From Candidatus Staskawiczbacteria bacterium RIFCSPHIGHO2_02_FULL_42_22 (GTDB lineage Bacteria; Patescibacteriota; Minisyncoccia; Minisyncoccales; Staskawiczbacteraceae), in the NCBI GenBank assembly GCA_001820175.1, contig MHOT01000018.1, positions 15,401 through 73,703 of the forward strand: a stretch of DNA of 58,303 bases, in the 5' to 3' direction. The notes under the pieces were generated by a model. The model made no database searches. It was not told the origin of the DNA and saw only the letters and a list, made by a program, of their open reading frames with translations. The position numbers and the translations under genes were made by a program. This document shows, piece after piece, positions 7,701 through 58,075 of this stretch. Every line of letters starts with the position of its first letter. Position 1 is the stretch's first letter.

Positions 7701-10700
7701 AGCGGAGTATACTCCATCACCGGTCTTACCATCTCTGCCAACGACGTGCTCACTCTATATATAGACGGCGAAACCGAAAAGGGAGTAACGGTAACATTGG
7801 CCTCCGGGAGCGATCAAACCAGTGTTCATATTTTCCAAAACTATTTAATCACCCGTTGTGATAATGCCTGTTCGCTCACCAATACTAATTTAGACACTGG
7901 CGATAATAATGCTGATACCGATATTTCGGCAATTTATTCTGTTGTAAGTGACGATGACGGCGATCCCCTCACCATCGCCGCCGGCAAATCATTATACATT
8001 CCTGTTAGCCACACCTTCGCCCCGGGAGGTACGGTATCAGTTGGCGGCAACTTCTCCAACAACGGCACTTTCACCCACGGTTCTTCTACGGTAACTCTAA
8101 CCTCCACCTCCGCCAGCGCCACCTTAAAAACCAATGCTTCATCGTTGTATAATCTGACCCAAGACGGTTCTGAAGGCACTTACACCCTGCAGGATGCTTT
8201 AACGGTATCAAATAATCTAACCATTACCGCAGGAACTTTGGATACCAAGTCGGGCTCTAATTATGGCATTACCATCGGTAATAATTTTTTCAACGGCGGC
8301 ACCTTTACCGCTCAATCCGGCACCGTTACTTTCAATGCCACCGCCACTGGAAAAACCATCACTGATGCGGGAGGGGGGGCGCCCTTCTATAATTTAACTT
8401 TCAATGGCGTGGGAGGAGGGTGGACACTAGGAAATAATACAACAGTTAGCAATGTTTTAACCATTACGAATGGTACGTTAGCGCTAGGATTTAATATTAC
8501 CCTCACCTTATCCGGCACCACAGGTGCTCCCTTTTCGAATTCAGGCACCTTCACCGCGGGTACCAGTAGTGTCACTTATACTGGCAACAATACCGGAGGC
8601 AATACAACGATTGCCAATGTGACCTACAGCACCCTTCGGGTAAATAACGGAAGCGAAACCTACGTACTGGCCGGCGACACCACCGTCAATGCCAACCTTA
8701 CCATTTCGGCGGGAACGCTGGACGCGGTTGCCGGAAGTAATTACTCGTTGACCGTCGGCAATAACTATTCCAATGCAGGCACCTTTGCCGCACAGGAGGG
8801 TACCGTCACTTTCACCGCCACTGCTACAGGAAAAACCATTACTACTGGTGGTTCATCTTTTTACAATCTCACTTTCAATGGAGTAGGCGGCGGCTGGACT
8901 TTGCAAGATGCCGCCACGGTTTCAAATGTATTAACCATCACTAACGGAACCCTGGATGGGGGATCAGTTAATCTTACCCTTTCCGGGACCACCGGCACTC
9001 CCTTTACCAGTGCAGGTACCTTTACTGCCAACACCGGCACCGTTTTTTATACGGGCAACAACGCCGGCGGCAACACCACCATCGCCAATGTTACCTACTA
9101 CAATTTAGGTCCTGATAATGCCAGTGAAACGTTTGTTTTGGCGGGTAATACAACCGTTAACAATATTTTCGTGATGACTGCAAGCACCACTCTTGACGTC
9201 GTCAGCGGCCAGAATTATTCACTAAGTGTTGGTGGTAACTGGAATAACGCTGGTATTTTCACCGCCCGAAGCGGCACTGTCACTTTAACCTCCACCTCCG
9301 CCGGCGCCACACTCACTTCAGGCGGCTCCAGTTTTTACAACCTCACTCAAAACGGCTCGGGAGGAACGTATACGTTACAAGATGCCCTCGCCACCACCAA
9401 TAATTTGACCATCACCGCCGGAACTTTGGACACCAAGTCCGGCTCCGATTTTGGAGTAAGTATCGGTAATAATTATTCCAACTCCGGCACATTCACTCCT
9501 CGCTCCGGCACCGTCACCCTCACCGCCACCGCCACCGGCAAAACCATCACCTCGGGAACCGGGGGTTTCTACAACCTCACCTTCAATGGTTCCGGCGGCG
9601 GCTGGACTTTGCAAGATGCGACAACCGTCAGCAACGTATTAACGATTACCGCCGGCACCCTGGACGCCGGCTCTCAGACCCTCACGCTTTCCGGCACCAC
9701 CGGAACCCCCTTTAGCATTGCAGGCACTTTTACCGAATCCACCTCAACCGTAAGTTTTACCGGCAACAATGCTGGTGGTAATACCACCATTCCCGCCGAC
9801 ACCTACTATAACCTAACCGTCAATAATGCTTCGGAGGCCTATACTCTGGCAGGAGACATTACCGTCAGCCGCGTACTTACGGTCACCGCCGGCACCCTTG
9901 TTAGTACTTCGAAAACCATCACGCTTTCCGGCACCACCGGCACGCCATTTTCTGTTTCAGGCAGCTACAGCGTAACCACGGGAACCGTCACCTACACCGG
10001 CAACAATTCCATCGGCAACACCATCGTCGCCAATGTTATCTACAATAACTTGACGCTCAATAATGCATCGGAGACATTTGACTTGGCCGGAAATACCACT
10101 GTCGCCGCCAACCTCACCATCACCGCCGGAACCTTGGACGCGGTTTCGGGAAGCAACTATACATTAAATGTCGCCGGTAACTGGTCAAACTCCGGAACCT
10201 TTACCGCCCAAAATGGCACCGTCACCTTGGACGGCACCAATCAGTCAATCACCGGCACCACCACGTTTTACAATCTCTCCAAAACAGAAGGATTAAATGA
10301 CAGCACCGACGAAACCCTTACGTTCACGGCCTCCACCACCTATACCGTCAGCAACACATTAACCCTCGACGGCCGCGATGCCAACGACCGCATCAATATC
10401 GTTTCCAGTGCTGGGGGAACCAAGTTTACCCTAGACCTAACGGGCGCCGCCCAAACCGCCGACTTCCTCGATGTCATTGATTCCCAGACCTCAACCAACA
10501 ATAATACTTGCACCAGTTGTGTAAATTCGGGCAACACCGACAGCGCCGAGTCCGCCCCTCACTGGGTGTTTTCAGCGGGAACGGTCACCTGGACCGGCAC
10601 CACCTCAACGGTTTGGTCAACCGGTACCAATTGGGATTCGGGCTCAGCACCCAACGACACCGATAACGTGGTGATTGCCGATGTTACCAATGACCCCATT

Positions 10701-13700
10701 TTAGATGGCAACAAAACGGTTAATGATTTGACGATTAATACTGGGGGTGTGCTGGATGCCAATACCACCAGCAATTACGGTCTGACGCTGACGGGCAATT
10801 GGAGTAATGCTGGCACTTTTACCGCGCGGGCAGGGACGGTTAATTTAACTTCTACTTCTTCAAGCGCCACCCTCACCAGCGGAAGTTCTTCTTTCTACAA
10901 CCTCACCCAAAATGGTTCGGGAGGTACCTACACCCTGCAGGATCACTTAACTACTGCTGCTACCCTCACCCTTACCCAGGGAATCTTTGCTGCTAATGAC
11001 AAAAATGTAACAGTGAACGTATTTAGTTCTTCTAACTCCAATACAAGAACTATCACCATGGGAACAGGAACCTGGACGTTAACTGGTAATAATACTACCA
11101 TCTGGAATACTTCAACTAATACCAACTTAACGCTTAATAGAGGCAATGCGATTGTTTCTAATTATAGTGGCTCTACGGGAACTAGAACTATAACAGGGTC
11201 TTCCATAGATGAAGCCACGAGTGCTGATTTTAATATTACCGCAGGATCAGATTCGGTCTTTATTACCGATGGAACTTCCGTACGCAATTTAGATTTCACG
11301 GGGTTTACTGGAACACTGTCTTCAAGTGACTGGCATATCTACGGTAATTTGGTTCTAGCTTCGGGCATGACGATAACGGGAGCAGGCAACAATATTACAT
11401 TTCGTGCAACTTCAGGTCCAAAAACGATTACCAGTAACGGAAAAACCCTTGGATATTCCCTTATCTTTAATGGCACTGGAGGCAGTTGGCAGCTTGTCGA
11501 TGACCTTAGTCTTGATTCCGGCAGTACTTTAACGATTACCCGAGGCACCTTTGACGCTAATAACCAGAACCTAACGACAGGACGACTCTCTTCTTCAAAC
11601 TCGAATACCCGTACTATCACCATGGGAAGCGGCACATGGACGTTAGCTGGCACCACTGGCACGCCTTGGGATACTTCTACTAGTACCAATCTGACACTCA
11701 ATGTTAATACCTCTACGGTGGCCTACGCGGGTAATAATGCGGGTGGCAATACCACCGTCGCCAATGTCACCTACAATAACCTGACGCTCAACAATTCTTC
11801 TGAAACGTTTGACTTGGGCGGAAACACTACCGTCAATAATAATGTCACTATCACCGCGGGAACGCTGGATGCCGTATCTGGCTCAAACTACACCATGAGC
11901 GTCGGAGGCAACTTTGCCAACTCCGGAACCTTCACCGCCCGCAGCGGCACCGTCACCCTCACTTCAACCTCCGCCAGCGCCACACTCACTTCCGGCGGCT
12001 CCAGTTTTTACAATCTCACCCAAAACGGCTCGGGCGGCACCTACACGTTGCAGGATGCGTTAACCGCTTCAAATAATCTAACCATTACCGCCGGAACTCT
12101 GGACACCAAGTCCGGCTCCGATTTTGGAGTAAGTATCGGTAATAATTATTCCAACTCCGGCACCTTTACCGCCCGATCCGGCACCGTCACCCTCACTTCA
12201 ACCTCCGCCAGCGCCACACTCACTTCCGGCGGCTCCAGTTTTTACAATCTCACCCAAAACGGCTCGGGAGGAACTTATACATTGCAAGATGCCCTCGCCA
12301 CCACCAATAATTTAACCATCACCGCCGGCACGCTCGACACCAAATCGGGCAGCAATTTTGCAATTTCCGTCGGCGGCAACTTTGCAAACTCGGGAACGTT
12401 TACCGCCCGCGAAGGCACCGTCACCCTCACCTCAACCTCCGCCAGCGCCACGCTCGACCCCGGAGGAACCACCTTTTACAACCTCACCCAAAACGGCTCA
12501 GGCGGCACCTACACCTTGCAGGGCGGCCTTGGTACGAGCAACAATCTAACCATCACTGCCGGCACCCTCGACACCAAGTCCGGTTCAAACTACGGTGTCT
12601 CGGTCGGAGGCACCTGGTCACGATCGGGAACGTTTACCGCGCGCTCCGCCAATTTCACCCTTACCGGAACTTCCACCTTTTCAGATACCATGTCGTTTTA
12701 CAATTTCATCATTAATGGTTCGGGCATCACCGCCACGCTGGGAGCCGACCTGACTGCCACGGGTACCTTAACCGTCACTCAGGGAACCTTAACTGCGGTT
12801 ACCTACAATGTAACTGCCGCCAATGTTGCCTCCGCCAACACCAACACCCGAACTATTTCCATGGGCACGGGCACTTGGACCTTATCGGGCACGGGAACCG
12901 TGTGGGATACTTCAACGACTACTAACCTTACCTTAAACGAAAGCACCTCCACTATTTCTTTGACTGACACTTCTTCTACTGTCAAAACCTTTGCCGGCGG
13001 CGGTGAGACATTTTACAATGTAAGTATTACTGCCTCCGGCACTGGGGCAATTATCGTAAGCGGAAGCAACACTTTCAACAACTTCACCATCAATCCGCCC
13101 AAGACCGTCACCTTTACTTCATCAACGACGCAAACCATCGGTGGGACGTTTTCCTGTACGGGAACTTCAGGTAACGTCATCACCATTAACGCTTCAACGG
13201 GCGGAACCGCCGCTACGCTTTCTAAGTCCTCGGGCACCGTATCTTGCGACTACCTACACTTAACTGATTCGGCCGCTACGGGGGGAGCTACTTGGGACCC
13301 GGGAGACAATTCCACCGACAACGGCGGCAACAGCGGCTGGGTGTTTAACACTGCCCCCTCTATTTCCGCCGGTCCTTCGGACCTTGGGGCCCTGTCGTCT
13401 CCCGCCAACGCCGGCTCGAACGTGACGTTCACCGCCACCGCCACCGATACCCAATCAGACAATTATTATTTAGCCGTTTGTAAAACCAATAGCATCACCG
13501 CTGCCAATAGCGCCGCCCCTACCTGCGGCGGAGGCAGTTGGGCCATTTCCAGCGCCACCGCTGCGGGGAGCCAGGCCTCGGTAACCTATGCCACGGTAGC
13601 AGGCGACAGCGAATCAAACGTTTGGTACGCATTTGTCTGTGATCAAAATAGCAACTCCTTCTGTTCTTCTTCCAGCCAGGGTTTGGGCAGCAACGGCTCG

Positions 13701-15590
13701 CCTTTTGAGGTCAACCACGTTCCTGCTTTCACGGCCGTCTCTAATACCTCCGGGGCCGTTACCACGGGTAACGCGGTTTCGTTTACTTCAACGGCCTCTG
13801 ATTCCGACACCGATTCCTCTGCCGATACCGTCACATTATATATCTGCAAATCCAACGATTTCGCTTCCGGCGTCTGCGGCTCGGCCGGCACCTGGTGCAG
13901 TTCATCAGCCAGTTCCTCTGATCCCTCGTGCAATTACACCATTGTCCAAGACGACGGCGACAGCGACCACTCCTACTATGCTTATATCGTTGATAACCAC
14001 AGTTTTGAATCAACTTCCAATCCCCGCACCGGCACCTTCACCTCTGATGTCATCGTTTCGTTTGGCGGAGGTGGTGGTGGTGGTGGAGGAGGAGGCGGAG
14101 GAGGTGGTGGTGGCGGCGGCGGCTCCGGCGGCGGTGGCTCAACCACGCCCCCCGAAGAATCCACCCCGGCCAGCCCCATCACCCCTATTATTGACATCAT
14201 CTCGGGGCCCATCAGCCAGGCCGGAGAAATCATCCAGGATATCGGCCAGGAAATCATCGATATTATTTTACCAAAGCCCAAACCATTGTCCCTTCCTCCC
14301 ATTCAAGAAGTGGTTGACACAAAACCACCGTTGGCGCTTACGGGCGATTGGGATCTGCTCTTTGGAGCCCAGATCAGAGAGTTCCTCTTCCATCCGTTGC
14401 CCTCTGACTTGAGCACTCTGGCCCAAAAGTTGCCCGAGGTAAAAAAGACCTTCACCGACACAGGGGTATCCACTCTGAATATGGTGGTGCAAAAATTACA
14501 GGGAGTGGAGTTGGCTATTCCGGGGATAAACCAGCGAATTGCGGCCCAAGAAATCGCTCTGCAAAAAATCGCCGATTCCCCAATATTGCCAGGAACCGAA
14601 CTGGCGGCTCCGGCATTGCCTGATAAAAAACTGCCAGCCGGCCAGCTTGGTCTAAACCAGCTTACCCTGCCCAAGAACATTCCTCTGGCCGAACTTCCGG
14701 CCATCGTTAAAACCTCCCTCCCTGGCGAGGTGGTCTTTGCCAGAACCCAAAATGAACTGATTGATTTTAATATCATTGTTTCCTTAAACGACCGCGGGCA
14801 GGCCGAGCAAAGGATTAACGCGGTTTCCGGCACCAATTTAAAGTTTGCCGTAAAGCCCTTAGCTCCGGTCGAAAGCGTTAAAGGGTACCTGGTGCTTTTG
14901 TCGGCTCAAACCAAAAAAACTGTATTTGAAGCACCGCTCAAGTTCCTGAAGGCCTCACTGGCCTTTGCTAATCCGCAGTTTGCCAAAAATCTCGAGGGCG
15001 AACCCGCCATTGAAAAAAAGTTCCTCTTAGCCGAATTTGACTATGCCGATCCCGATGAAGATGGCATCTGGACTGCCGAGGTTACGGCTCCCGCAGTTGA
15101 GGGAGAGTACGAGGTGATTACCATTATGAATTACAAGGACGTTACCATTGGTAACAGGGAAGTGCGGCTGATTGTGGTGGTAGATCCCGAGGGCTATGTG
15201 TATAGTAATATCATGGGCGGAGAATTACGAATTAACCAAGCCGAGGTTTCTTTGTATTGGCTCAACCCCGTGACAAAAAATTATGAGCTTTGGCCCGGTG
15301 ATGGCTTCCAGCAAAAAAACCCCCAGGTAACTGATAAAACCGGACGCTACGCCTTTTTGGTGCCGGAGGGAATGTACTACCTGACCGCCACCGCCCAAAA
15401 CTACCAGAAATTCCAATCAGAGGAATTTGGGGTCAGTGAAAACAACGGTGTCCACATTAACATTGAGATGGAAAGCAAGCTGTGGTGGTGGCTTAAATAT
15501 CTAGATTGGAAAACCTTGGCCGTGGTGGGGATGTTTGTATTATTGTCTTATATTATTATTAGTGGTAAAATGAGGAAAAGAAATCGGTAA
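1713..15590 (+). CDS. Giant (~4,600 aa) surface/adhesin-like protein: N-terminal TM, Pro/Glu-rich linker, Hint domain, ~3,000 aa of Thr/Ser/Gly/Asn-rich beta-helix-like repeats, Cys-containing Ig-like domains, poly-Gly linker, carboxypeptidase-regulatory-like domain, C-terminal TM
   Basis: Uninterrupted ORF; hydrophobic segment WVALVLLFVSCATVSG; repeat TFTARSGTVTLTSTSASATLTSGGSSFYNLTQNGSGGTYTLQD; C-terminal hydrophobic helix followed by KMRKRNR. True start uncertain (GTG 1713, ATG 1761 or ATG 2076). Confidence 0.9.
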   Translation: MCGTINRITTRNVIFLMKRKPVTHSFAIPIKQAKKEAPVFVNVRIIDKDRWFSIRSFLRFFARAKNWYCKRFVGSLLPSLRAAAAAARVGLTVYNRLNEIATAARPRARRLAMTCGKTLHLMYLHALKRIFPSRRLSLRQWVALVLLFVSCATVSGNLLFSRVQRYVLEGKIIKQVATVQTAPVVAHLPVPYTTLVNRTAITKDRYLVALPKGATNITVKRISQKEAQKITSSNNEFLSGQLTLLERQQLASANRKITSGSPLSFINFGLFVSDGLSAMVGRFANIFAKKLIAAEASASEEAVVQEPAPEAPAPESVAPEPSVPESSAPEPVAPEAPLVEVPVLDEVGPRTASELPDPIESETIPEVPESETIPAESASADTSTSDDPTESITPEIIETPDAILVDLSEEGLDENMPDETEAPATENRGGPTSTVSQEPVSFAPSGDPVFESAGQVLGESISSAEAIQTVSSSDQPVVSSNEIVPMPEPSGILDEVGTSPSPLDSARNDESEIASDAPRNDESNESAPDQNTTDDSLLPEAAQSDEEEFIQIDYELPAPQITEQDTATGKEVTVFAENEDPKNPLTNVLAFTTIPEIFNVGQESKIQIKWVNNDGQIMPFTAHDTDQNGKLDYLEWTVPHLSEQTFNIIFISKAFQLDQDKNIIADIYDQVSFQDNNYATIENNQYVRVTFEIPFTSQNNIKLYAKSDTIGAIEVYPVYTDAEGNLTEGDIIATSGNITNEGFHEILLTNLQTPTEVFDLKITGVAPPAGGAESGATQAISIDYIVYADFDYSPNKILTPTGYKNISELNIGDEIIGYENGQQVVNQVENIEQRRPEDYHYWEKDEQGNETNYTEVPFTYYLINETWELFKDQSIFTKDRLVHASELNVGDIIYDANHQPIKITSIRNGEDHIQWTRFTVSGNHTYIADGLLMHNASRYWVALIDPSNVSEGGWGSDAPTGGSCMSLVASVPGSSDVAIFDADCDTSANIDANWSLAGFSMESGYTGTVTQNTTITLTVGSSNYSQLGGTFTVGDAAIDINGSFTLSNAGTAFTSTSATMTISGSLTTSSSPTFTHNSGTVTFDGTSTSSTSVDASSVTFNAVTINRTISTGSFAPTFTVTSNTTIPLGNSPTLTLNNSDTVNGAYYLTNNGTITVGTGTFTSTVDGGITNSGGSTISGSVTSWTQNGNITNNGTITLSSLATLDVNSQTNAAGIASIGSFTNGASDTLTTASSPTLTINGSLTVDSTSTFPTNATVTFDGAIGASSTVDASGVTFTSVTINRTIATGSLAPTFTVANGTTLPLGNSPTLTLNNTDTVNGQYYLTNNGTITVGTGTFTSNVDGGITNSVTTGVISGSVTAWTQNGNMTNNGTITMSSLATLDVNSATGTGIIGSFTSGSASTLTTAASPTMTFNGSLTVTSGATFPTNPTVTFDGAITASSTVNASGVTFASVTINRSISNGSVTPTFTVTSGTTLPLGNSPTLTLNNADTVNGQYYLTNNGTITVGTGTFTSNVDGGITNSVTTGVISGSVTAWTQNGNMTNNGTITMSSLATLDVNSATGTGIIGSFTAGASSTLTTAATPTMTFNGSLTVTSGAVFPASSAVTFDGSTTSGTLTCGGVTLGSFTVNKTSSGTVTVGDDCTISGALTRTDGAINNPAAAKVWTVQGAFSMSTTDTFGGANLTLTMGGSSAQTITQNAGTMSGVFKVDKTGSNAASLSTNFTTGTTCNVVEGAFAITNKTFTCGSTFTVEDGGTFQRAGSETTTAPTLNSGSTVTYVGDGDAATDTITITGSNTDYHHLILNATDGASDTFQLGAGITVAGNFTNTAGTFNANTQTVTLDGTDQTLAGSTTFAALVKQETTNDATNKTLTFTSGTTTTISSTLILDGLDADDNLIIAASAASAATIDFTGSSTFSTTGYLTVSYNTATDNSSGVSLPLSPANSTDSGNTTGWFAPTYSIGGTVYTDEGVTNIGSLKTVAISINGAAAAGTDDTDASGVYSITGLTISANDVLTLYIDGETEKGVTVTLASGSDQTSVHIFQNYLITRCDNACSLTNTNLDTGDNNADTDISAIYSVVSDDDGDPLTIAAGKSLYIPVSHTFAPGGTVSVGGNFSNNGTFTHGSSTVTLTSTSASATLKTNASSLYNLTQDGSEGTYTLQDALTVSNNLTITAGTLDTKSGSNYGITIGNNFFNGGTFTAQSGTVTFNATATGKTITDAGGGAPFYNLTFNGVGGGWTLGNNTTVSNVLTITNGTLALGFNITLTLSGTTGAPFSNSGTFTAGTSSVTYTGNNTGGNTTIANVTYSTLRVNNGSETYVLAGDTTVNANLTISAGTLDAVAGSNYSLTVGNNYSNAGTFAAQEGTVTFTATATGKTITTGGSSFYNLTFNGVGGGWTLQDAATVSNVLTITNGTLDGGSVNLTLSGTTGTPFTSAGTFTANTGTVFYTGNNAGGNTTIANVTYYNLGPDNASETFVLAGNTTVNNIFVMTASTTLDVVSGQNYSLSVGGNWNNAGIFTARSGTVTLTSTSAGATLTSGGSSFYNLTQNGSGGTYTLQDALATTNNLTITAGTLDTKSGSDFGVSIGNNYSNSGTFTPRSGTVTLTATATGKTITSGTGGFYNLTFNGSGGGWTLQDATTVSNVLTITAGTLDAGSQTLTLSGTTGTPFSIAGTFTESTSTVSFTGNNAGGNTTIPADTYYNLTVNNASEAYTLAGDITVSRVLTVTAGTLVSTSKTITLSGTTGTPFSVSGSYSVTTGTVTYTGNNSIGNTIVANVIYNNLTLNNASETFDLAGNTTVAANLTITAGTLDAVSGSNYTLNVAGNWSNSGTFTAQNGTVTLDGTNQSITGTTTFYNLSKTEGLNDSTDETLTFTASTTYTVSNTLTLDGRDANDRINIVSSAGGTKFTLDLTGAAQTADFLDVIDSQTSTNNNTCTSCVNSGNTDSAESAPHWVFSAGTVTWTGTTSTVWSTGTNWDSGSAPNDTDNVVIADVTNDPILDGNKTVNDLTINTGGVLDANTTSNYGLTLTGNWSNAGTFTARAGTVNLTSTSSSATLTSGSSSFYNLTQNGSGGTYTLQDHLTTAATLTLTQGIFAANDKNVTVNVFSSSNSNTRTITMGTGTWTLTGNNTTIWNTSTNTNLTLNRGNAIVSNYSGSTGTRTITGSSIDEATSADFNITAGSDSVFITDGTSVRNLDFTGFTGTLSSSDWHIYGNLVLASGMTITGAGNNITFRATSGPKTITSNGKTLGYSLIFNGTGGSWQLVDDLSLDSGSTLTITRGTFDANNQNLTTGRLSSSNSNTRTITMGSGTWTLAGTTGTPWDTSTSTNLTLNVNTSTVAYAGNNAGGNTTVANVTYNNLTLNNSSETFDLGGNTTVNNNVTITAGTLDAVSGSNYTMSVGGNFANSGTFTARSGTVTLTSTSASATLTSGGSSFYNLTQNGSGGTYTLQDALTASNNLTITAGTLDTKSGSDFGVSIGNNYSNSGTFTARSGTVTLTSTSASATLTSGGSSFYNLTQNGSGGTYTLQDALATTNNLTITAGTLDTKSGSNFAISVGGNFANSGTFTAREGTVTLTSTSASATLDPGGTTFYNLTQNGSGGTYTLQGGLGTSNNLTITAGTLDTKSGSNYGVSVGGTWSRSGTFTARSANFTLTGTSTFSDTMSFYNFIINGSGITATLGADLTATGTLTVTQGTLTAVTYNVTAANVASANTNTRTISMGTGTWTLSGTGTVWDTSTTTNLTLNESTSTISLTDTSSTVKTFAGGGETFYNVSITASGTGAIIVSGSNTFNNFTINPPKTVTFTSSTTQTIGGTFSCTGTSGNVITINASTGGTAATLSKSSGTVSCDYLHLTDSAATGGATWDPGDNSTDNGGNSGWVFNTAPSISAGPSDLGALSSPANAGSNVTFTATATDTQSDNYYLAVCKTNSITAANSAAPTCGGGSWAISSATAAGSQASVTYATVAGDSESNVWYAFVCDQNSNSFCSSSSQGLGSNGSPFEVNHVPAFTAVSNTSGAVTTGNAVSFTSTASDSDTDSSADTVTLYICKSNDFASGVCGSAGTWCSSSASSSDPSCNYTIVQDDGDSDHSYYAYIVDNHSFESTSNPRTGTFTSDVIVSFGGGGGGGGGGGGGGGGGGGGSGGGGSTTPPEESTPASPITPIIDIISGPISQAGEIIQDIGQEIIDIILPKPKPLSLPPIQEVVDTKPPLALTGDWDLLFGAQIREFLFHPLPSDLSTLAQKLPEVKKTFTDTGVSTLNMVVQKLQGVELAIPGINQRIAAQEIALQKIADSPILPGTELAAPALPDKKLPAGQLGLNQLTLPKNIPLAELPAIVKTSLPGEVVFARTQNELIDFNIIVSLNDRGQAEQRINAVSGTNLKFAVKPLAPVESVKGYLVLLSAQTKKTVFEAPLKFLKASLAFANPQFAKNLEGEPAIEKKFLLAEFDYADPDEDGIWTAEVTAPAVEGEYEVITIMNYKDVTIGNREVRLIVVVDPEGYVYSNIMGGELRINQAEVSLYWLNPVTKNYELWPGDGFQQKNPQVTDKTGRYAFLVPEGMYYLTATAQNYQKFQSEEFGVSENNGVHINIEMESKLWWWLKYLDWKTLAVVGMFVLLSYIIISGKMRKRNR
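1945..2054. repeat. Family D palindrome in the 5' end of the giant ORF
   Basis: CGTCATTGCG...CGCAATGACG termini with GC-rich internal hairpins. Confidence 0.85.
4077..4517 (+). other. Hint (intein-like/BIL) domain within the giant protein, aa ~789-935
   Basis: KILTPTGYKNISELNIGDEI (block A-like), ASELNVGDII, FTVSGNHTYIADGLLMHN (blocks F/G with terminal His-Asn). Confidence 0.88.
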
Positions 15591-16008: not shown

Positions 16009-16285
16009 TAGACCTGTTGCGTATTAAGGATTTACTGCAAATTGCATATTTCGGCCACAAATTTGCTATACCTAGTATAATGTGTCGCTCGTTCGGAAAG
16101 GAATAATTGCGATTTTTCCTTTCCTCTCTCGCTTAGCACATTATAATTTTTCGGTCAAGATGTGGGTAAATTTGTAGCAACAAATTTCCCCATCTCCGGG
16201 CCTGGAGGCAAGCCGAAAAATTCTATCAAATTTCTGCCACAAAATCTTCAATTTTCGTAACAATCCTTAATACGCAACAGGTCTA
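16009..16285. mobile_element. Family A MITE-like palindromic element (277 bp; TIR TAGACCTGTTGCGTATTAAGGA)
   Basis: 22-bp perfect TIRs, no ORF, near-identical copies elsewhere in either orientation. Confidence 0.9.
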
Positions 16286-16390: not shown

Positions 16391-16407
16391 AATGGTACAA
16401 TTTAAAT

Positions 16408-36484: not shown

Positions 36485-36679
36485 ATGGAACCGGAAACCC
36501 AAAAAATTATATCATTGCTTGAAGATCTAGTACAATCACAAAAGGCCAACCAGGCCGCTATGGTAGAAATGACTCGCAAGGATAAAAAATATAAAAAAGT
36601 TATCGGAGGATTGCTTATTGTTGTGTTAGTGTCTTTTTTGTATGCAATCGTGATATCATTGTTGTATTATTATAAATAG
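36485..36679 (+). CDS. Small C-terminally anchored hypothetical protein
   Basis: 64 aa with one TM; stop codon TAG coincides with the first bases of a family A element. Confidence 0.6.
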   Translation: MEPETQKIISLLEDLVQSQKANQAAMVEMTRKDKKYKKVIGGLLIVVLVSFLYAIVISLLYYYK

Positions 36680-36954
36680 ACCTGTTGCGTATTAAGGATT
36701 GTCGCGAAAATTACAGATTTTGAGCTGGAAATTTGATAGAATTTTTCGGCTTGCCCTCTGGGCCCGGAGATGGGGAAATTTGTTGCTACAAATTTACCCA
36801 CATCTTGACCGAAAAATTATAATTTGCTAAGCGAGAGAGAAAAAGAAGAATAGCAATTATTCTTTTTCGAACGAGCGACAAATTATACTAGGTATAGCAA
36901 ATTTCTGGCCAAAATATGCAATTTGCAGCAAATCCTTAATACGCAACAGGTCTA
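36677..36954. mobile_element. Family A element (278 bp), opposite orientation to the 16009 copy
   Basis: Same TIRs and internal modules. Confidence 0.9.
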
Positions 36955-40833: not shown

Positions 40834-40867
40834 TTTACCTTCACATCAAACAGGTGGGGTAATATAA

Positions 40868-41144
40868 TAGACCTGTTGCGTATTAAGGATTGTCGCGAAA
40901 ATTGAAGATTTTGGATCAGAAATTTGATAGAATTTTTCGGCTTGCCCATAGGCCCGGAGATGGGGAAATTTGTTGCTACAAATTTGCCCACATCTTGACC
41001 GAAAAATTATAATGTGCTAAGCGAGAGAGAAAAAGAAGAATATCAATTATTCTTTTTCGAACGAGCGACACATTATACTAGGTATAGCAAATTTCTGGCC
41101 AAAATATGCAATTTGCAGTAAATCCTTAATACGCAACAGGTCTA
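40868..41144. mobile_element. Family A element (277 bp) between dnaG and rpoD
   Basis: TIRs and modules as above. Confidence 0.9.
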
Positions 41145-41170
41145 ATAATACAAACAAGTAAAAGTTTAAA

Positions 41171-41343
41171 AACCTTGAGTTACGAAATGCTTTCGCGGGA
41201 TTTTCTCTAAATTCCAGAGCGAAAAATTGATAGAAATCCGAGGCATAGCGCGCTATGCCGAGGATTTATAGCAATTTTGCAGCTGGAATTTAGAGAAAAG
41301 ACCCGAAAAGTCCTTTAAAACGGGCATTTCGTAATTCAAGGTT
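41171..41343. mobile_element. Family B palindromic element (TIR AACCTTGAGTTACGAAATGC)
   Basis: 20-bp TIR with one G.T; relatives at 57584-57757 and 57825-58000. Confidence 0.85.
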
Positions 41344-41358
41344 TAAAAAACAATACAC

Positions 41359-42555
41359 TTGTTTGGTGTGGGGGTGAAAAAAAATAAAAAACCGGTAAAA
41401 GGGGCAAAAATCCACAAAAAAATCCCGAAAAAGAAGGTGGTAAAAAAGCAAAAGAAAGCTAAAAAAATGCGAGTTTTAAGCCCCAAGGTAAAAATTACCC
41501 AGGCCCAAATTGACGCTCTCTTACAAAAAGGCCATGAGCGTGGTTTTATCACCACCTCAGAAATTTTATACGCTTTTCCTTATATCGAAAATAACGTAGA
41601 TGACTTGGAAAACATTTACGACCAGTTAAAAGAGAGTGGAGTTGAGGTAAAAGATGTCCGTGAATTTTTAGAAGTAAAAAGTAAAAAGACCAAAAAAGAT
41701 AAAAAAGTGCTGCAAAGCAAAATTGACCCTATCCAGATGTATCTACGAGAAATTGGGAAATCAAGCTTTTTATCTGCTAAAGAAGAAAAGGAGTTAGCCA
41801 AAAAAATCGAACATGGGGACGAGGAAGCCAAAAATCGCCTGGCGCTGGCTAACTTGCGTCTCGTGGTTTCTATTGCTAAAAAATATGTGGGTCGGTCGCC
41901 TAATTTGACGTTGCTGGACTTAATTCAAGAAGGAAATTTAGGCCTTTTTAAAGCAGTTAAAAAATTTGACTGGCGCCGGGGATATAAATTTTCCACCTAT
42001 GCTACTTGGTGGATCCGTCAATCCATTACGCGCGCCTTGGCCGACCAGGCCAGGACTATTCGGATTCCCGTGCACATGATTGAAACTATTTCAAAGTATA
42101 CCAAAGTTAGGAAATCCCTTTTGCAGGAACTTGGCAGAGAGGCGCTGGCCGAAGAAATTGCCGCGGAAATGGGTTTGGACGTCGACAAAGTGCACCACAT
42201 CAGAAAAATTGCCCAAAAAGCGGTATCGCTTGAAACGCCGATTGGCGAAGATAAAGATAAGCAGGATAGCGTACTGGCAGAATTTATTAAAGACGATAAA
42301 ACCGTTGCTCCCAATACCGAGGCGGCCAGGAAAATGTTGAAAGAACGGTTTCGGGAAATTTCAAGCGAGCTGACTCCGCGGGAATTAAAAATTCTTGGTA
42401 TGCGTTTTGGTTTAGACGATGGCGTTATGCATACCCTAGAAGAAACCGGGGAAGAATTCGGTGTTACCCGCGAAAGAATCCGGCAAATCCAGGCAAAGTC
42501 ATTGGAAAAATTACGAAAGCACGCCGATTTAAAGAAGGTGAAGGATTATTACTAG
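41359..42555 (+). CDS. rpoD: RNA polymerase primary sigma factor
   Basis: [64 protein letters not shown]; exact start uncertain. Confidence 0.97.
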
Positions 42556-52210: not shown

Positions 52211-52370
52211 TAGACCTGTTGCGTATTAAGGATTGTTACGAAAATTGAAGATTTTGAGCCAGAAATTTGATAGAATTTTTCGGCTTGCCTCCAGGCCCGC
52301 CGAAAAATTATAGCAAATTTCTGGCCGAAATATGCAATTTGCAGTAAATCCTTAATACGCAACAGGTCTA
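52211..52370. mobile_element. Family A short form (160 bp; lacks both internal modules)
   Basis: Same TIRs; equals the long form minus the 42-bp and 75-bp inserts. Confidence 0.9.
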
Positions 52371-52417
52371 ATAAAAATACCTGCAAAAATATAAAATATC
52401 TTTGCAGGTACTGGTTA

Positions 52418-52840
52418 TTAGTGGGTCGTTGCTATTTTGGCGCGGCGCTGTCTTTGATAGCATACCCAACAAAGCGGTGGATGAGATGTTGTAATAATCT
52501 TCGTCTTTTTGCACTGGTTGCAACATCCAACCCTACTTTTGTTGTGGCAGTTCGAGCAGATGGGACCGTCTTCAGTCCGCTTTCGCACTTGCTTGACCTC
52601 CTTGCACCGAGAGCACTGCTCGCGTTTGGAAGGGTCCTTGTTGTAGCAGTTCGAGCAGACGGGACCATCTTTAGTCCGCTCCGCCACTCGCTTGACCTCC
52701 TTGCACCGAGAGCACTGCTCGCGTTTGGAAGGATCGTGGTAACGATCCTTGTCGTAGCAGCTCGGGCAGATCAATTTTTTGGTCTTGCGACTGCGATGAA
52801 CGGTTTTCCATTTCTTGCAAACATTGCAAATGTCCAGCAT
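52418..52840 (-). CDS. Cys-rich repeat (multi zinc-finger-like) protein
   Basis: Eight CxxC motifs; 99-bp tandem duplication; AGAGGAGGT SD. Confidence 0.8.
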   Translation of the reverse strand: MLDICNVCKKWKTVHRSRKTKKLICPSCYDKDRYHDPSKREQCSRCKEVKRVAERTKDGPVCSNCYNKDPSKREQCSRCKEVKQVRKRTEDGPICSNCHNKSRVGCCNQCKKTKIITTSHPPLCWVCYQRQRRAKIATTH

Positions 52841-52931
52841 TTATCACCTCCTCTTGGTTGAAGTTTTGTGAAAGAACGAGTTGATCAATGTTACTTTAAA
52901 CTATTATTTATTATTTGTCAAAAAACGGTGG

Positions 52932-53235
52932 TATAGAACAAACATTATCACTTCGCACTCCAATTCTTGACGGATTTGCCAATCTTGGGCAGTTTTCGCA
53001 AAAAATATGTTTGCCGTAGCTACGGCTACGCCAAACATATTTTTTGGAGACGGGGCGAATTTGTTGTGACAAATTACGCCTCGCGTCTTGACTCCAAGCC
53101 GCCCAATATTCGAGGATAGCGAAGGGAGTAAATATGCCGCAGTATATTTACTCCCAAGCGACGCAGAATATATGCTTATCATATATTGCCAAACCGCCGG
53201 CGACTTTAGTGCAAAGTGATAATGTTTGTTCTATA
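52932..53235. mobile_element. Family C long form (304 bp) with two inserted hairpin modules
   Basis: Inverted copy of 46405-46587 plus inserts at 53047-53091 and 53111-53187. Confidence 0.9.
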
Positions 53236-53264
53236 GATTCCGTGTCAATCTTTTGTAAAGTTTA

Positions 53265-53430
53265 ACGAGATTGCTTCGTCGCCCTTCGCTGTCCAGACAC
53301 GAGGCGTAATTTGTCGCAACAAATTTAACCGTCTCTGGCTCAGGGCTCTAAAGTCGCGAGATTTTTCTCGCCTTTCGGGCGGGAAAAATCTGGCGACTTT
53401 ACGTAATGACGGTGGGGCGCGAGGGGTTAC
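53265..53430. repeat. Family D right arm with two inserted modules and GGGGTTAC shell end
   Basis: Modules at 53292-53335 and 53349-53401. Confidence 0.8.
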
Positions 53431-53476
53431 AAATTAAAAAATTGATATCATGCAATAAAAATTGTACAATGAACAC

Positions 53477-54646
53477 ATGAAAATAGAAAACATCTCTTTG
53501 GGGATATGGATACCCCGGGCATCAATGCATCTAAAAGAAATGTATCACTTTTTCAGTGGAGAAAAGATGCCGATCGCGGGTCTTGGCGCCCAGAAATTAG
53601 CAAAATTAAGAGAATCATTGGGAATTATAAAAGTTGATTTTATCACCAAGGCCGAGTTTGACGAAGTCCATGTGCTATGCCAAGCGATCTATATTACCAT
53701 ATCGTCAGAAGGGACCATTATTTTGCAATTAAGGAAAGATGACAAAGGGGATTTGGCTTTTGAAAATGCGGCAATGCTCGAGCATTTTTTTATTGAAAAA
53801 CTTTCTCCGGCGGTTAATTATCTTTTTAGTTTGGGGGCGCCTTTGCCCAAGGAATTGCAGAATATACGAGAGGCGTATCCCACCATTGTCATCGTAAAAG
53901 ATGCTTTTGAACAAGAACTAAATCAATTTATTAAAACCCAAAAGATTGAAATCTATTCCAGGGATATTTCTGAAAAATTGGATTTCTTTTTCGGGGAAAA
54001 AACTAGCATTATTAATGTGAAGCATGACGCGGTTCCTAAAGATATTTTGCTGCAAGAGATGATATTTCTAAAGGAATTTCCCATGCAGCTTAAAAATTAC
54101 CTTGCGGTACACCGGATGGTATGGGAAAAAGTAGATAACATCAGGGAAGTAAAAAGCATTGCATACAAGGATTTTACCCGCATCAGGGAGCAAATGAACG
54201 GTTTCCTAAAAACACTTTCACTCATGAAAGCCCGACTGGCGCAAATGGAGGATATTATAGAAACCAAAAAGGAAATAAACAATGCGATGTCTCAAGAAGG
54301 GTTGAAAGATATCAATATCCATAGAATTAATAATTTCATCGGGGACGTCAAATATGTTAAGGATTTATGGGAAATGACCATTGACTATGTCAAAGATACT
54401 TTAAATTTGATAGAATCAGTGTCGCGAGAAAATATCCAGCGAGAACTGAGCGCATTGAAGTTCGTTGCCTTAATCGGCGCCATTACCAGTTTCTTTGGCA
54501 TGAATATTGCATTTCCCTGGGAAGACCGTTGGGATGCGATTTTTTTGAGTTCCCTGGCCGTCATTGGTATTATTATTTTTGTTTCATTTACCTTCTATTA
54601 TTTTTTAAAGATATTTATTTACAACAGAAAATTTAACATGAAGTAG
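53477..54646 (+). CDS. CorA-like divalent cation transporter (divergent)
   Basis: Long helical region followed by two C-terminal TMs with the GMN signature (FFGMNI). Confidence 0.6.
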   Translation: MKIENISLGIWIPRASMHLKEMYHFFSGEKMPIAGLGAQKLAKLRESLGIIKVDFITKAEFDEVHVLCQAIYITISSEGTIILQLRKDDKGDLAFENAAMLEHFFIEKLSPAVNYLFSLGAPLPKELQNIREAYPTIVIVKDAFEQELNQFIKTQKIEIYSRDISEKLDFFFGEKTSIINVKHDAVPKDILLQEMIFLKEFPMQLKNYLAVHRMVWEKVDNIREVKSIAYKDFTRIREQMNGFLKTLSLMKARLAQMEDIIETKKEINNAMSQEGLKDINIHRINNFIGDVKYVKDLWEMTIDYVKDTLNLIESVSRENIQRELSALKFVALIGAITSFFGMNIAFPWEDRWDAIFLSSLAVIGIIIFVSFTFYYFLKIFIYNRKFNMK

Positions 54647-54650
54647 ATAT

Positions 54651-54971
54651 TAGACCTGTTGCGTATTAAGGATTTGCTCGAGACGCGAGGGTTACCGGCT
54701 CAGCCGGAACCCCCGTCTGTAGCAAATTGCATATTTTGGCCAGAAATTTGCTATACCTAGTATAATGTGTCGCTCGTTCGGAAAGGAATAATTGCGATTT
54801 TTCCTTTCCTCTCTCGCTTAGCACATTATAATTTTTCGGTCAAGATGTGGGTAAATTTGTAGCAACAAATTTCCCCATCTCCGGGCCCTCTAGGCAAGCC
54901 GAAAAATTCTATCAAATTTCTGATCCAAAATCTTCAATTTTCGTAACAATCCTTAATACGCAACAGGTCTA
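54651..54971. mobile_element. Family A element (321 bp) with an extra 43-bp hairpin
   Basis: Long form plus insert at ~54678-54721. Confidence 0.9.
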
Positions 54972-55029
54972 TTCAAAATATGGCAAAGGTCGAGTTATAA
55001 TATGCAAAAATATATTTAAATTTAAAAAA

Positions 55030-55190
55030 TAGACCTGTTGCGTAATAAGATTATATGCGAAACGCAGCAATTTTTAGGTAAAAAATCAGAAAAATCTGGA
55101 GGTTTGCCCAAGGGCAAGCCGACAGATTTTTATGGTTTTTGAACGAAAATTGCAAGTTGCAGCGTAAATCCTTATTACGCAACAGGTCTA
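55030..55190. mobile_element. Divergent family A element (161 bp)
   Basis: TIR TAGACCTGTTGCGTAATAAG / CTTATTACGCAACAGGTCTA; different but still palindromic interior. Confidence 0.85.
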
Positions 55191-55195
55191 ATATC

Positions 55196-56674
55196 ATGGA
55201 AAAAATAAATAAGTTATTGAACATTAAAAACATTTTATTGCTTTCAGTGTTGGTTTTTTCTTTGCTGGTATTTGTTAATCCCGGTATTCTTTTTGGACAA
55301 GCTGCGCCGCAAAAAGAAATCTGCAATGGTGTGGACGACAATGGCGATGGACGGGTTGATGAAGGGGTAAATTGCGACCATTATCTAAGTTATCTTATCG
55401 ACAAATCTATTAATCCGGTTAACGTTGTTTTGCGCGATCAATTTATTCAACCCACGGATTTTCAGGCGGTTTCCATTGAGCGGCTCTTTAATCCGGCGGT
55501 AAAAACTCACGGAGGCATAAAATTCAAAGCAAGCAGACCAGACCTTCACTACTTGGCCTATAGAGTCAAAACCCCTGCTACATTCACGCCGCGCTCCGTG
55601 ATTATAGAAAACCAATTTGAGCGTAATGTTATATCAGTCACCAATCCTCGGTACTTATTGACTCCAACCGGTAAACGGAAAATAGGCATTACCGACCAAA
55701 CACTTTCTTTAATGCCCGTATCAGCGGCTAAGAAATTACTTGAAGCAGTTGCGCCATCGATTCCGAAAAATGCCAATCATTACCTTTGCTATGATATAGA
55801 GCCCTACGATGTTTCTTTGGCGGCGTCTGTGAAAGATCAATTCCAAAATAGGGGATTTGAAGTGGTCCGGGCGCGTTATTTTTGCAACCCCGTAGAAAAA
55901 ATGCATAATGGAAAGGTGAGTGAGATTATTGATAGAAATAACCATTTGACCTGTTATGAAGTGATTCCCCATAACAAGGTGAACCGAAAAGTGGTGACCC
56001 GCGATCAATTTGGGGCGAAATTACAGACCGCAATTAGGACGGAAGAAATCTGTGTTCCAACCATTAAAACCCACATAGATGAACCCGTCTGCGTCCAGCC
56101 CGATGATCAGGGTACGGCCGTTATTTTTGCCAGTGACAAAAAATTCCAAACCACCGACGGCCACTTGGTTGTTATTCAACCATCAATGGGATCAAATGGC
56201 CTGACGGCCGACGGCATCCTCATGAGTGGTCCCGATACGGTTATTAATCGAGGTGGCAGTCCATCTGAAGGGGAAACATATACATTTGAAACCGAAATAC
56301 TCCAAATGTCGCTTTCAAGCGGACGTGTTTTGAATGTTCCCATGAACGGGCAAATAACCACAGAGCCGCGTACGCCCGGCGAGGCAATTCAGTCCTTTGA
56401 TACTGAAATGTTGCAACTGCAAGGGCAATTACCTCCAGGCGACCCTGACTTTGATTTGCTGCGCATTACCGCAGGGAGCGGCTTTGGCCTGCCAAGCCCT
56501 GGCCACACGACGCTCACGCGTAGCGGCACCAAGTACTGGCATGTGGACAGCTTTTTTGACATCACCTACCGCATTGATTTTGTCGGCGCTCCTGGCGGAG
56601 CATACGCGGGTATGAGCGGCTCAACCACCGCCACCATCAGAATGCAGGGCTCTTGCTCAATGCCGAATTCATAA
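55196..56674 (+). CDS. Secreted multidomain protein
   Basis: Signal peptide; EICNGVDDNGDGRVDE motif; repeated HY/HL-x-CY and (N/D)QF units; distinct C-terminal domain. Confidence 0.8.
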   Translation: MEKINKLLNIKNILLLSVLVFSLLVFVNPGILFGQAAPQKEICNGVDDNGDGRVDEGVNCDHYLSYLIDKSINPVNVVLRDQFIQPTDFQAVSIERLFNPAVKTHGGIKFKASRPDLHYLAYRVKTPATFTPRSVIIENQFERNVISVTNPRYLLTPTGKRKIGITDQTLSLMPVSAAKKLLEAVAPSIPKNANHYLCYDIEPYDVSLAASVKDQFQNRGFEVVRARYFCNPVEKMHNGKVSEIIDRNNHLTCYEVIPHNKVNRKVVTRDQFGAKLQTAIRTEEICVPTIKTHIDEPVCVQPDDQGTAVIFASDKKFQTTDGHLVVIQPSMGSNGLTADGILMSGPDTVINRGGSPSEGETYTFETEILQMSLSSGRVLNVPMNGQITTEPRTPGEAIQSFDTEMLQLQGQLPPGDPDFDLLRITAGSGFGLPSPGHTTLTRSGTKYWHVDSFFDITYRIDFVGAPGGAYAGMSGSTTATIRMQGSCSMPNS

Positions 56675-56716
56675 TGGTTTATCGCCAATAGTATCGATAA
56701 AATTAATAAAGGATAC

Positions 56717-56956
56717 CAGTGCCTCACTAATATAATTTTGAACCCTGGTTCAAAATTATATTAGGGCGCTTCCGTAAATACCTTCCCCAAAATTAGGTTC
56801 AATGCGCCCTGAATATCAGTACTGTAATTGAGCAAAATCTTGAGCCCTACCTTGGGTAGGGCGAAGGACTTTGCGATTGAGTAGTGCTGATAGTCAGGGA
56901 TGCGGTGGGCGTAAGATGGGGAAGCTATTTACGGAAGCGCCCTTAGTGAGGCACTG
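56717..56956 (+). ncRNA. Candidate rod-shaped structured RNA
   Basis: Nested inverted repeats with several G.U-compatible pairs on the + strand and a central unpaired bubble. Confidence 0.5.
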
Positions 56957-56992
56957 ACTCGAGGCACAGACTTCTTGAGTAATCCTGTGCAA

Positions 56993-57037
56993 TAGATCTG
57001 TTGCACAATATGTTTTGCATATTTCGCAACAGGTCTA
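56993..57037. mobile_element. Minimal family A relic (45 bp)
   Basis: TAGATCTGTTGC...GCAACAGGTCTA. Confidence 0.75.
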
Positions 57038-57045
57038 ATAAATAT

Positions 57046-57498
57046 ATGGAAAAACTTCGTATGCAACCGTGGATTTGGGTGCTCGTTGCCCTTTTTGCGG
57101 TTGCGGCTATTATTTTTTTTGTTTTTAACAATAAATCAGCGTCAAATCCGGTAACAACCGAAAGCGAATCAGTCCAAGATATTAGTCCCCAGGACACCGG
57201 TGTTATGGCTAGCGCAATTTCGTATGCCAATGCATTGGTAAAATACGCGGATCGAAGAATCCAACTTGATACCATGTGTCAAGCGCATCCCAGTAACGTA
57301 ACCTACAAAGATAATACCGGTATCATGATTGACAACCGGTCTCCGCAAACCCGCACCGTTAAAATCGGCACTACATTCACCATAAAGCCATGGGGATTTA
57401 AAATCGTCGTTTTACCCGATGTTTACCTAAAATCAAACACCATTTTAGTGGATTGTGATAATTCCCAAAACGTAGCCACCATTTTGGTTCAAGAATAA
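57046..57498 (+). CDS. Membrane-anchored hypothetical protein
   Basis: N-terminal TM; C-terminal beta-rich domain with two Cys; terminator hairpin at ~57525-57566. Confidence 0.75.
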   Translation: MEKLRMQPWIWVLVALFAVAAIIFFVFNNKSASNPVTTESESVQDISPQDTGVMASAISYANALVKYADRRIQLDTMCQAHPSNVTYKDNTGIMIDNRSPQTRTVKIGTTFTIKPWGFKIVVLPDVYLKSNTILVDCDNSQNVATILVQE

Positions 57499-57583
57499 TA
57501 TCAAGCGCATTGGTAACACTTTGCCGCAAAAAGAAAATCCCCACTATCGGGGATTTTCTTTTTGCGGTAAATGAATTTTTTTC

Positions 57584-57757
57584 AACCGTGAATTACGAAA
57601 TGCCTTCGCAAGATTTTTTCTTAATTTTGAGCGAAAATTCGATAGAATTTTTTATCGTGGCCAAGGGCTACGATAAAAAATTATTGCGAATTTGCAGCCA
57701 AAATTAAGAAAAAAGATGCGAAAGTTATTTTATACGGGCATTTCGTAATTCACGGTT
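57584..57757. mobile_element. Family B element
   Basis: TIR AACCGTGAATTACGAAATGCC / GGCATTTCGTAATTCACGGTT. Confidence 0.85.
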
Positions 57758-57824
57758 CATAAAAAACCTCAGTTGTTTGAACTGAGGTCTGCCGTAATGA
57801 AAATTCCTTTCCAAGCATTCTTGT

Positions 57825-58000
57825 AGCTGTGAATTACGAAACCCCTCGGAGCTATTTTTTTCAGATTTTGAGCTAGAAATTTGATAGAATTTTTCGGCTT
57901 GCCCAAAGGGCCCGCCGAAAAATTATAGCAAATTTGTGGCCAAAATCTGGAAAAAAGAGCCCGAAACTCTTTTAACATGGGGGTTTCGTAATTCACAGCT
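57825..58000. mobile_element. Family B element carrying a family A-type core
   Basis: TIR AGCTGTGAATTACGAAACCCC / GGGGTTTCGTAATTCACAGCT; interior nearly identical to 52253-52330. Confidence 0.85.
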
Positions 58001-58075
58001 TGTAGGAGAAACCAGTAATGAAGGTGTTTCCGGAAAGTGCCGTTGTTTCTGGCGCTGTTCGGAAAGGGTCTTTAT

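Follow-up and report, generated by a model that had tools for sequence, protein, structure and literature searches.

The short inverted repeats scattered over a 58,303-nucleotide stretch of the groundwater bacterium Candidatus Staskawiczbacteria bacterium RIFCSPHIGHO2_02_FULL_42_22 (the window, C18:15401-73703 of an 821-kb genome in 30 contigs with ~41% G+C) are, on balance, best read as non-autonomous foldback MITEs (miniature inverted-repeat transposable elements) built in two layers: a shell made of the ends of an insertion sequence (IS), and a selected core that would serve as a module directed at RNA polymerase. The shell may decide which transposase, supplied in trans, moves the element. 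Two shells, here called A and B, enclose the same core in the window, and what is new is that both have been traced to insertion sequences in sister genomes.

Insertion-sequence ends as shells

The elements are 157-172 bp long, non-coding and present in many copies, as is typical of MITEs, and each folds into a single hairpin running from end to end (z-scores of -12.6 to -15.2 against shuffled sequence). If the strand with GATAGAAT in its 5' arm is taken as the top strand, the fold energies are -98.5 kcal/mol (top) and -89.7 kcal/mol (bottom) for B, and -88.5 and -83.3 kcal/mol, respectively, for A. Lengths are tightly held across genomes, at 157-160 bp for A and 163-169 bp for B. A short A element (A-short) and the B elements starting at 41173, 57586 and 57827 are placed and spelled as an earlier sequence-only reading of the window had given them (Table 1).

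Of 90 copies of shell A (AGACC...GGTCT), 63 lie between identical flanks of 3 bp, most often ATT (30) or AAT (22); these are direct, not inverted, repeats, and all six A copies in the window have them. For shell B (C[CT]NTGAATT...) the duplication is 7 bp long, exact in 25 of 89 copies or in 35 of 89 if up to one mismatch is allowed, and the duplicated site has palindromic ends of the form CTnnnAG or TAnnnTA. The same core was also recovered within a shell C (AAACTGTCTAATAAG...), with a 5-bp CTAAG duplication in three of six copies, and a shell D (GAGATGGTTGCAAAAG...), with a 3-bp duplication in eight of nine. A second layer (GCTTTYGAGG...), situated directly inside the terminal inverted repeat (TIR), is common to shells B, C and D, and the architecture is therefore onion-like.

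The parent of shell B was sought by a search of the genus for DDE_Tnp_1 transposases and that of shell A by a search for DDE_Tnp_4. The former recovered two elements of ~1.0 kb bounded by exact B TIRs. One of these (L106), of ~1.02 kb with the ends CTGTGAATTACGAAATGC...GCATTTCGTAATTCAAAG, is flanked by the 7-bp duplication TTTTATA and contains a 286-aa open reading frame (ORF); the encoded transposase matches Pfam DDE_Tnp_1_3 (3.9e-30, 105 bits against a cut-off of 27), and among NCBIfam models IS982 matches it best, scoring 121.8 bits, a little short of the 130-bit cut-off. The other (L109) has a 6-7-bp duplication, TAATTA, and a 280-aa ORF. The DDE_Tnp_4 search recovered a ~1.1-kb IS (L143) bounded by A TIRs (TAGACCTGTCCCTAAATAAC...) and the duplication ACT/ACT, the sole A-type IS found. 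Its transposase contains DDE_Tnp_4 (PF13359; 1.1e-25, 90.5 bits against a cut-off of 24.8) and has a far sub-threshold best NCBIfam match to the IS5 family (53.5 against 140); this domain and the 3-bp duplication together place it in the DDE_Tnp_4 (PIF/Harbinger-like) branch of IS5. It is split by a 79-bp mini-A MITE (positions 1088-1166 of L143, with a second copy abutting at 2052-2130; G020:C25), and MITEs therefore attack their own parent. As judged from these termini, shell B is shown to comprise the ends of a putative IS982-like element, and shell A those of an IS5-family (DDE_Tnp_4) element.

MITE and IS resemble each other only at the tips, over about 15-19 nt in B and 22-24 nt in A, and no homology to the core was found inside the IS982-like or the DDE_Tnp_4 IS. 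With an interior that lacks homology to the subterminal IS regions, the elements do not qualify as deletion derivatives of their parents. Neither parent IS was found in this genome, searches by tblastn with both transposases being negative or near-negative.

Other sources of mobility were considered. None of the rve-type transposases tried as the parent of shell A has A TIRs. Y1/RAYT transposases found no support as movers of the core, as the Y1 domain (PF01797) has no match in this genome and, although present in 16 of the 26 genomes of the genus, shows no correlation with the core across it; the Y1/HUH genes of the genus (RAYT-like, 220-270 aa) could instead move small hairpin modules that lack duplications. 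A 1.7-kb 'B-flanked' stretch (L022) proved to be a chance pairing around obg and ABC-F genes. A further ~1.0-kb DDE IS (L108 1441-2443; G013:C10) has related but distinct ends (GAGCTTGGTGAATAATACC), suggesting a separate cognate IS for each of the diverged B-like shells of other genomes. The short forms of B (33-105 bp) were entertained as empty shells into which cores insert; their junctions are heterogeneous, and they are therefore independent internal deletions. The smallest unit still looking like a transposon is a 33-bp TIR-loop-TIR mini element made of two B ends only (C8:28500, C14:5250, L012:285 and others), some copies of which keep intact 7-bp duplications.

Conservation of the core and its sharing between shells

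A-short and the B element at 57827 share ~90 nt at 90% identity and have no similarity outside this region, which confirms the shared core and differing ends that had been noticed from the letters of the window. The internal motif proposed at the same time, GATAGA facing TTATAGC, does pair as A.G, U-A, A-U and G.A on direct reading, and it is retained in larger sets. In an alignment of 59 distinct B copies, recognised by their TIRs at loci fetched by the core pattern, positions G57, A58, T59, A60, A62, A63 and T65 are invariant and the GATAGAAT columns vary little or not at all, and no variation is seen at A95, T97, T98, T100, G102 and C103 of the right arm. More broadly, TTTGATAGAAT is near-invariant on the 5' arm and lies opposite ATTnTnGC on the 3' arm. 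As a check independent of the core, B elements were listed separately by their TIRs alone in 14 genomes, and nearly all matches listed carry GATAGAAT on one strand and, on its complement, GC[TAC]A[TG]AAT. Similarly, GATAGAA is found in 40 of the 51 A shells of canonical length.

Pairing is retained along the rest of the hairpin. In the B alignment 97.5% of cells are paired, both-sided changes occur at 38 of 58 pairs, where shuffles give 22.1 and slid controls 8-20, and three A.G mismatches are kept, at alignment columns 28/133, 60/104 and 63/101. The B terminal repeats covary as had been claimed, at pair 2-177 (UA 35, CG 24), at pair 3-176 (UA 37, GC 12, CG 6) and also at pairs 16-18 with 161-163. 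The further proposal that the core rather than the ends is conserved stands as regards the comparison between families, to which the core is common, but not within any one shell, where the TIRs match the boxes in conservation and it is the intervening stems that drift, with compensation. With its near-invariant 5' box, compensated stems, fixed length and wobble pairs biased to one strand (see below), the core looks to be kept by selection.

Sharing of the core extends well beyond the copy at 57827. The A-type apical stem (GGCTTGCC...GGCCCGCC) is present in B shells at three other sites of this genome (C2:9677, C1:6327 and C26:26403) and in B shells of L002, L058 and L074; as apical stems cross shells in several genomes, a one-off chimera or misassembly is ruled out. 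Five of 39 apical-stem clusters span more than one shell class, stem types being partly tied to shell: the CGGCTTGCC/GGCCCGCCG type occurs in 21 A and two B copies, and a related type in four B and three A copies of other genomes. Exchange has also reached the ends, with hybrids that combine an A1 left end and an A2 right end (C27:14237 and C10:30489-30790) and an A2 right end stacked within an A3 right end (L016). The B copy at 57827 matches the A-type cores of this genome over ~88 nt, including flanks that other B copies lack, and we read this match as a probable conversion tract. Cores and apical stems might generally pass among shells by recombination or gene conversion across common sequence. 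Conversely, 11 of the 51 canonical-length A shells and a few B shells hold other cores, and the modularity therefore runs in both directions. Thus, of the initial view that a shared core sits in exchangeable arms, the sharing and the exchange are upheld, with the arms now recognised as ends of two unrelated IS families that differ in duplication length, and the core is not the only one that these shells carry.

Possible roles of the core

The left arm of the core (TTTGATAGAAT) and the bottom strand of its right arm (TTTGCTATAAT) both contain a match to the extended -10 box (TGnTAnAAT) pointing to the apex. Outside the elements, TGNTANAAT followed by ATG at 5-7 nt (peak 6) was found in 26 cases, 15 of which start ORFs of at least 100 aa, indicating leaderless genes. 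Many genes of this organism are apparently of this kind, with TGnTA[ATC]AAT placed exactly 6 nt before ATG (e.g. at 16393-16401 of the window, C18:31793), and the leaderless extended -10 box provides a usable promoter model for this lineage of the candidate phyla radiation (CPR). The A-type IS has TGGTATAAT-N6-ATG ahead of its transposase gene. Within the elements, the left T of the TG is retained in 57 of 59 B copies despite pairing with G in 38 of them; in the bottom-strand box, A at -11 and T at -7 show little or no variation, in contrast to -12.

We envisage the core as a portable module aimed at RNA polymerase, in which candidate extended -10 boxes, TGATAGAAT on the top strand and TGCTATAAT on the bottom strand, face inwards around a GC stem-loop. 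Transcription would then exit the element in both directions, keeping insertions into near-gapless operons (e.g. between dnaG and rpoD) viable, and the end-to-end foldback would also bring both transposon ends together. This specific role, promoter donation plus foldback, is the likeliest of those considered, at about one chance in three.

Several observations weigh against a core directed at RNA polymerase. A simple -35/-10 scan calls neither box, and AT-rich stems can resemble -10 boxes by chance. The top box is always TAGAAT, a hexamer seen in none of the 26 native leaderless promoters, and something besides promoter strength must therefore fix that G. Singleton (private) mutations are not significantly depleted in the boxes, in what is a low-power test. 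The elements are not enriched upstream of genes, their intergenic context being at baseline, and have no orientation bias relative to neighbouring genes (co/anti 25/13 in this genome and 38/47 in other genomes). A 'long A' form, in which both the right box and the apical stem are split, has multiplied to at least nine copies nonetheless. Finally, G.U cells exceed A.C cells by 65:15 in A and 115:24 in B, about 5:1 in favour of one strand, and two internal promoters leave this bias unexplained because neither transcript would hold both hairpin arms. A seeming preference for TAGAAT as a -10, based on its enrichment upstream of genes (149 sense, 71 antisense, 42 expected), was discarded as an artefact of tandem 7-nt 'TTAGAAT' repeats; arrays of this type are common upstream of genes (e.g. 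the C23:12098 flank), and their strong 7-nt periodicity mimics promoter enrichment.

The wobble bias is central to a close rival, possible though less probable and proposed in the sequence-only reading, namely that the core works as a folded single strand of RNA or single-stranded DNA (ssDNA), and of one particular strand. Here the A.G/U-A/A-U/G.A motif would be a predicted protein-binding or cleavage signal for propagation or processing; in a variant of this proposal the hairpin is a promoter or priming site on ssDNA, with the 5' arm as non-template -10. Most of the bias comes from the region inside the TIRs, with ~149:19 for inner cells and 26:16 for outer ones. Shared ancestry inflates such cell counts, and a tally by pairs is more reliable: G.U exceeds A.C in 24 inner pairs, and the reverse holds in five. 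The more stable fold is that of the top strand in 88 of 95 copies (33 of 36 in A, 55 of 59 in B), the difference averaging ~8 kcal/mol. The wobble bias implies that either the single-stranded form of one strand matters or a strand-specific process is at work. The three conserved A.G mismatches of B and the invariance of the 5'-arm box against a 3'-arm partner that varies at two positions point the same way, and the missing orientation bias fits selection that acts on the life cycle of the element itself and not on the mRNAs of the host. On the other side, the target duplications argue against ssDNA transposition of the HUH/Y1 type, no Y1 gene is found in this genome, and no strand-specific single-stranded stage is known for DDE transposition by IS5- or IS982-type enzymes. 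A promoter for the whole hairpin is not evident in shell A, and reading of shell B yields only a weak candidate (TTGAAT-N18-TATTTT). The multiplication of long A copies with a disrupted core is equally awkward for such a signal. Rfam gives nothing beyond generic hairpin noise: the window yields only a tRNA, and the elements only sub-threshold matches to miRNA precursors, on both strands.

It is more doubtful that the core, rather than being transposon debris, is a free-standing functional module repeatedly captured by unrelated transposons, acting as a strand-specific hairpin that is either an ssDNA promoter or priming site or an element-encoded structured RNA. For an ssDNA promoter, the non-template -10 would be supplied by the invariant 5' arm TGATAGAAT, with the conserved A.G mismatches pre-opening it. 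Models for such hairpin promoters and priming sites are Frpo of the F plasmid and the single-strand origins of rolling-circle replicons. If this were true, some bacterial MITEs would bear a 'payload' that raises their own propagation and for which shells compete.

An unlikely proposal makes the core a candidate site for an IHF/HU-type architectural protein of the host, at which bending would let any DDE transposase join both ends; Correia elements, with a central IHF site, and IS10, with subterminal ones, are precedents. A host-factor partner would account for a core that does not depend on its shell, the strictly held length would agree with this, and the bottom strand of the left box (TATCAAATTTCTR) is close to the consensus WATCAANNNNTTR. 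The match is imperfect, however, the consensus may not be that of the CPR HU/IHF proteins, and neither the strand-biased wobble pairs nor the asymmetry of the arms would be explained. About as improbable is a functionless core, with a palindrome arising as a by-product of inverted duplication of an IS end and a conserved look due to young families, horizontal spread and gene conversion: gene conversion and recombination are clearly active, the right side of shell A resembles the right end of the A-type IS over ~38 nt with the left shell mirroring it, and the boxes lack a depletion of singletons, but the RpoD protein differs by 12-23% among host species, an 8-11-nt block stays fixed amid stems changed on both sides at most pairs, selection or some strand-specific process is required for the one-strand wobble bias, and the core is in neither parent IS.

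Host range, precedents and further features

An iterated nhmmer search with the core recovered 74 distinct core loci in this genome. A pattern made of the two conserved boxes matches more than 100 loci in public metagenome-assembled genomes (MAGs) labelled Candidatus Staskawiczbacteria, 'uncultured Saccharibacteria' (third-party assemblies) or Patescibacteria; as a control, the pattern read backwards has no matches in 41 genomes, against 30 matches of the real pattern in this genome alone. Of 25 other genomes from this GTDB genus that were searched whole, 16 contain the core pattern; 16 other families of the order gave no match. The element family is thus genus-restricted, patchy and multi-copy. 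A conserved host RNA gene is ruled out by this patchy spread in one genus, together with the many copies with target duplications and the empty sites. Third-party MAGs labelled 'uncultured Candidatus Saccharibacteria' (L003, L005, L008 and others) share element families with Staskawiczbacteria MAGs, and as all carriers fall in one GTDB genus these labels are probably wrong.

Empty sites are seen at the junction of dnaG and rpoD, where most members of the genus have 0-12 nt between the stop of the former and the start of the latter, or an overlap of the two. In this genome (G000) the junction holds ~480 nt of a long A and a B element and in another (G020) a different A-shell element with an AAT duplication, so that the site is polymorphic for insertion. 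The same junction (40834-41375 of the window; L118, L119, L121, L136, L138) is a recurrent landing site of unrelated palindromic elements, among them A and B MITEs and 'word-repeat' hairpins (GATACCAAT..., GCCTGCCTGAC...), and the essential sigma-70 gene, which lies downstream of these insertions, has to be expressed all the same.

The nearest precedents are the IS982-derived MITEs of Cardinium and the promoter-bearing Correia elements; in the literature on MITEs in CPR/Patescibacteria no relevant description of such elements was found. The Cardinium endosymbiont has a MITE of ~240 bp maintained by its parental IS982-family element ISCca4 (PMC9769881). Like the elements described here, IS982-derived MITEs of Cardinium are short, non-coding and multi-copy, with IS982-family inverted repeats and a transposase acting in trans. 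By its description the Cardinium MITE derives from its parent IS, whereas shell B has only its 15-19 terminal bases in common with the IS, the remainder of the element being a foreign hairpin also found in MITEs of another IS family. The Correia elements (CREE/NEMIS) of Neisseria are credited with promoters by Siddique et al. 2011 (PMC3024310), as that work is cited in PMC11602168. They too are intergenic foldback MITEs (~100-160 bp) with promoter-like boxes and recombining subtypes. Correia elements have a single TIR family with a 26-bp TIR, a TA duplication, a central IHF site and a Neisseria host, and no parent IS is known for them. The present elements differ in having several shells with unrelated TIRs, duplications of 3, 5 and 7 bp, two parent ISs, a CPR host and boxes that are central and face inwards.

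REPINs and REP elements, which are mobilised by RAYT (Y1) transposases (PMC3116915, PMC3733652), are likewise intergenic hairpin repeats with co-evolving arms, and their recognition is strand-specific and single-stranded. They are typified by GTAG/CGTC tags, a RAYT gene and the lack of a target duplication; here the duplications are clear, GTAG/CGTC tags are absent from the element ends and the genome has no Y1 gene. BIMEs and BOX elements are mosaic repeats whose conserved sub-units recombine in varied combinations. They are thus modular in the same manner, but their modules are without identifiable IS ends or family-specific target duplications.

Textbook MITEs are defined by their ends and have a disposable interior; here it is the interior that is constant and compensated across species, and this one interior is common to elements answering to at least two unrelated transposases, of the IS5 and IS982 types. 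This raises the questions of what a MITE interior contributes (promoter donation, end synapsis or a single-strand signal), of whether a new MITE family originates when an existing body receives other ends, and of how ultra-compact CPR genomes, with junctions of 0-12 nt, tolerate inserts of 150-500 bp between essential co-transcribed genes such as dnaG and rpoD. For a lineage that has been little studied, the analysis also provides the first candidates for promoter motifs and for pairs of transposon and host.

Table 1. Elements of the window and their parts (TSD, target-site duplication; positions count from the first nucleotide of the window)
Feature	Position	Strand	Description
A-short	52211-52370	+	shell A TAGACCTGTTGCGTATTAAGG...CCTTAATACGCAACAGGTCTA; element proper AGACC..GGTCT 52212-52369; flanks AAT/AAT, 3-bp duplication
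Core hairpin of A-short	52249-52332	+	90% identity to 57863-57948; fold
Left box of A-short	52266-52276	+	TTTGATAGAAT; extended -10-like TGATAGAAT reading to apex
Right box of A-short	52307-52315	-	ATTATAGCA on top strand; perfect match to extended -10, TGCTATAAT, on bottom strand, reading to apex
B element with A-type core	57827-57998	+	shell B CTGTGAATTACGAAACCCC...GGGGTTTCGTAATTCACAG
TSD CTTGTAG, 7 bp	57820-57826 (left copy), 57999-58005 (right copy)	.	flanks B element 57827-57998
Core hairpin of B element 57827	57863-57948	+	left box 57880-57890; right box 57922-57930
B element with its own apical stem	57586-57755	+	apical stem TTATCGTGGCC/GGCTACGATAA; GATAGAAT at 57641-57648
B element between dnaG and rpoD	41173-41341	+	TTTAAAAA on either flank; variant core GATAGAAAT / TTTATAGC
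Long A between dnaG and rpoD	40868-41144	+	shell A and core split by two nested hairpin modules; TSD AAT
Long A copy	36677-36954	+	TSD AAT
Long A copy, inverted orientation	16009-16285	-	TSD AAT
Long A copy with one extra insert (319 bp)	54651-54971	-	TSD ATT
Shell A around a different, 'type 2' core	55030-55190	+	core ATCAGAAAAAT / TTTTTATGG; TSD AAT

The nested modules of the long A element between dnaG and rpoD lie at 40957-40998 and 41006-41085 and are also present in the copies at 16009, 36677 and 54651. One, of ~45 nt, is in the apical stem, and the other, of ~77 nt, lies within the right box at the position TTATA/GC (the slash marking the point of interruption) and comes with a duplicated TATA plus CTAGG, the composite having then multiplied as one unit. 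Elsewhere in the window, a 4625-aa ORF at 1713-15590 consists of repeats of ~78 aa (234 nt) and resembles a giant beta-helix or adhesin-like surface protein.

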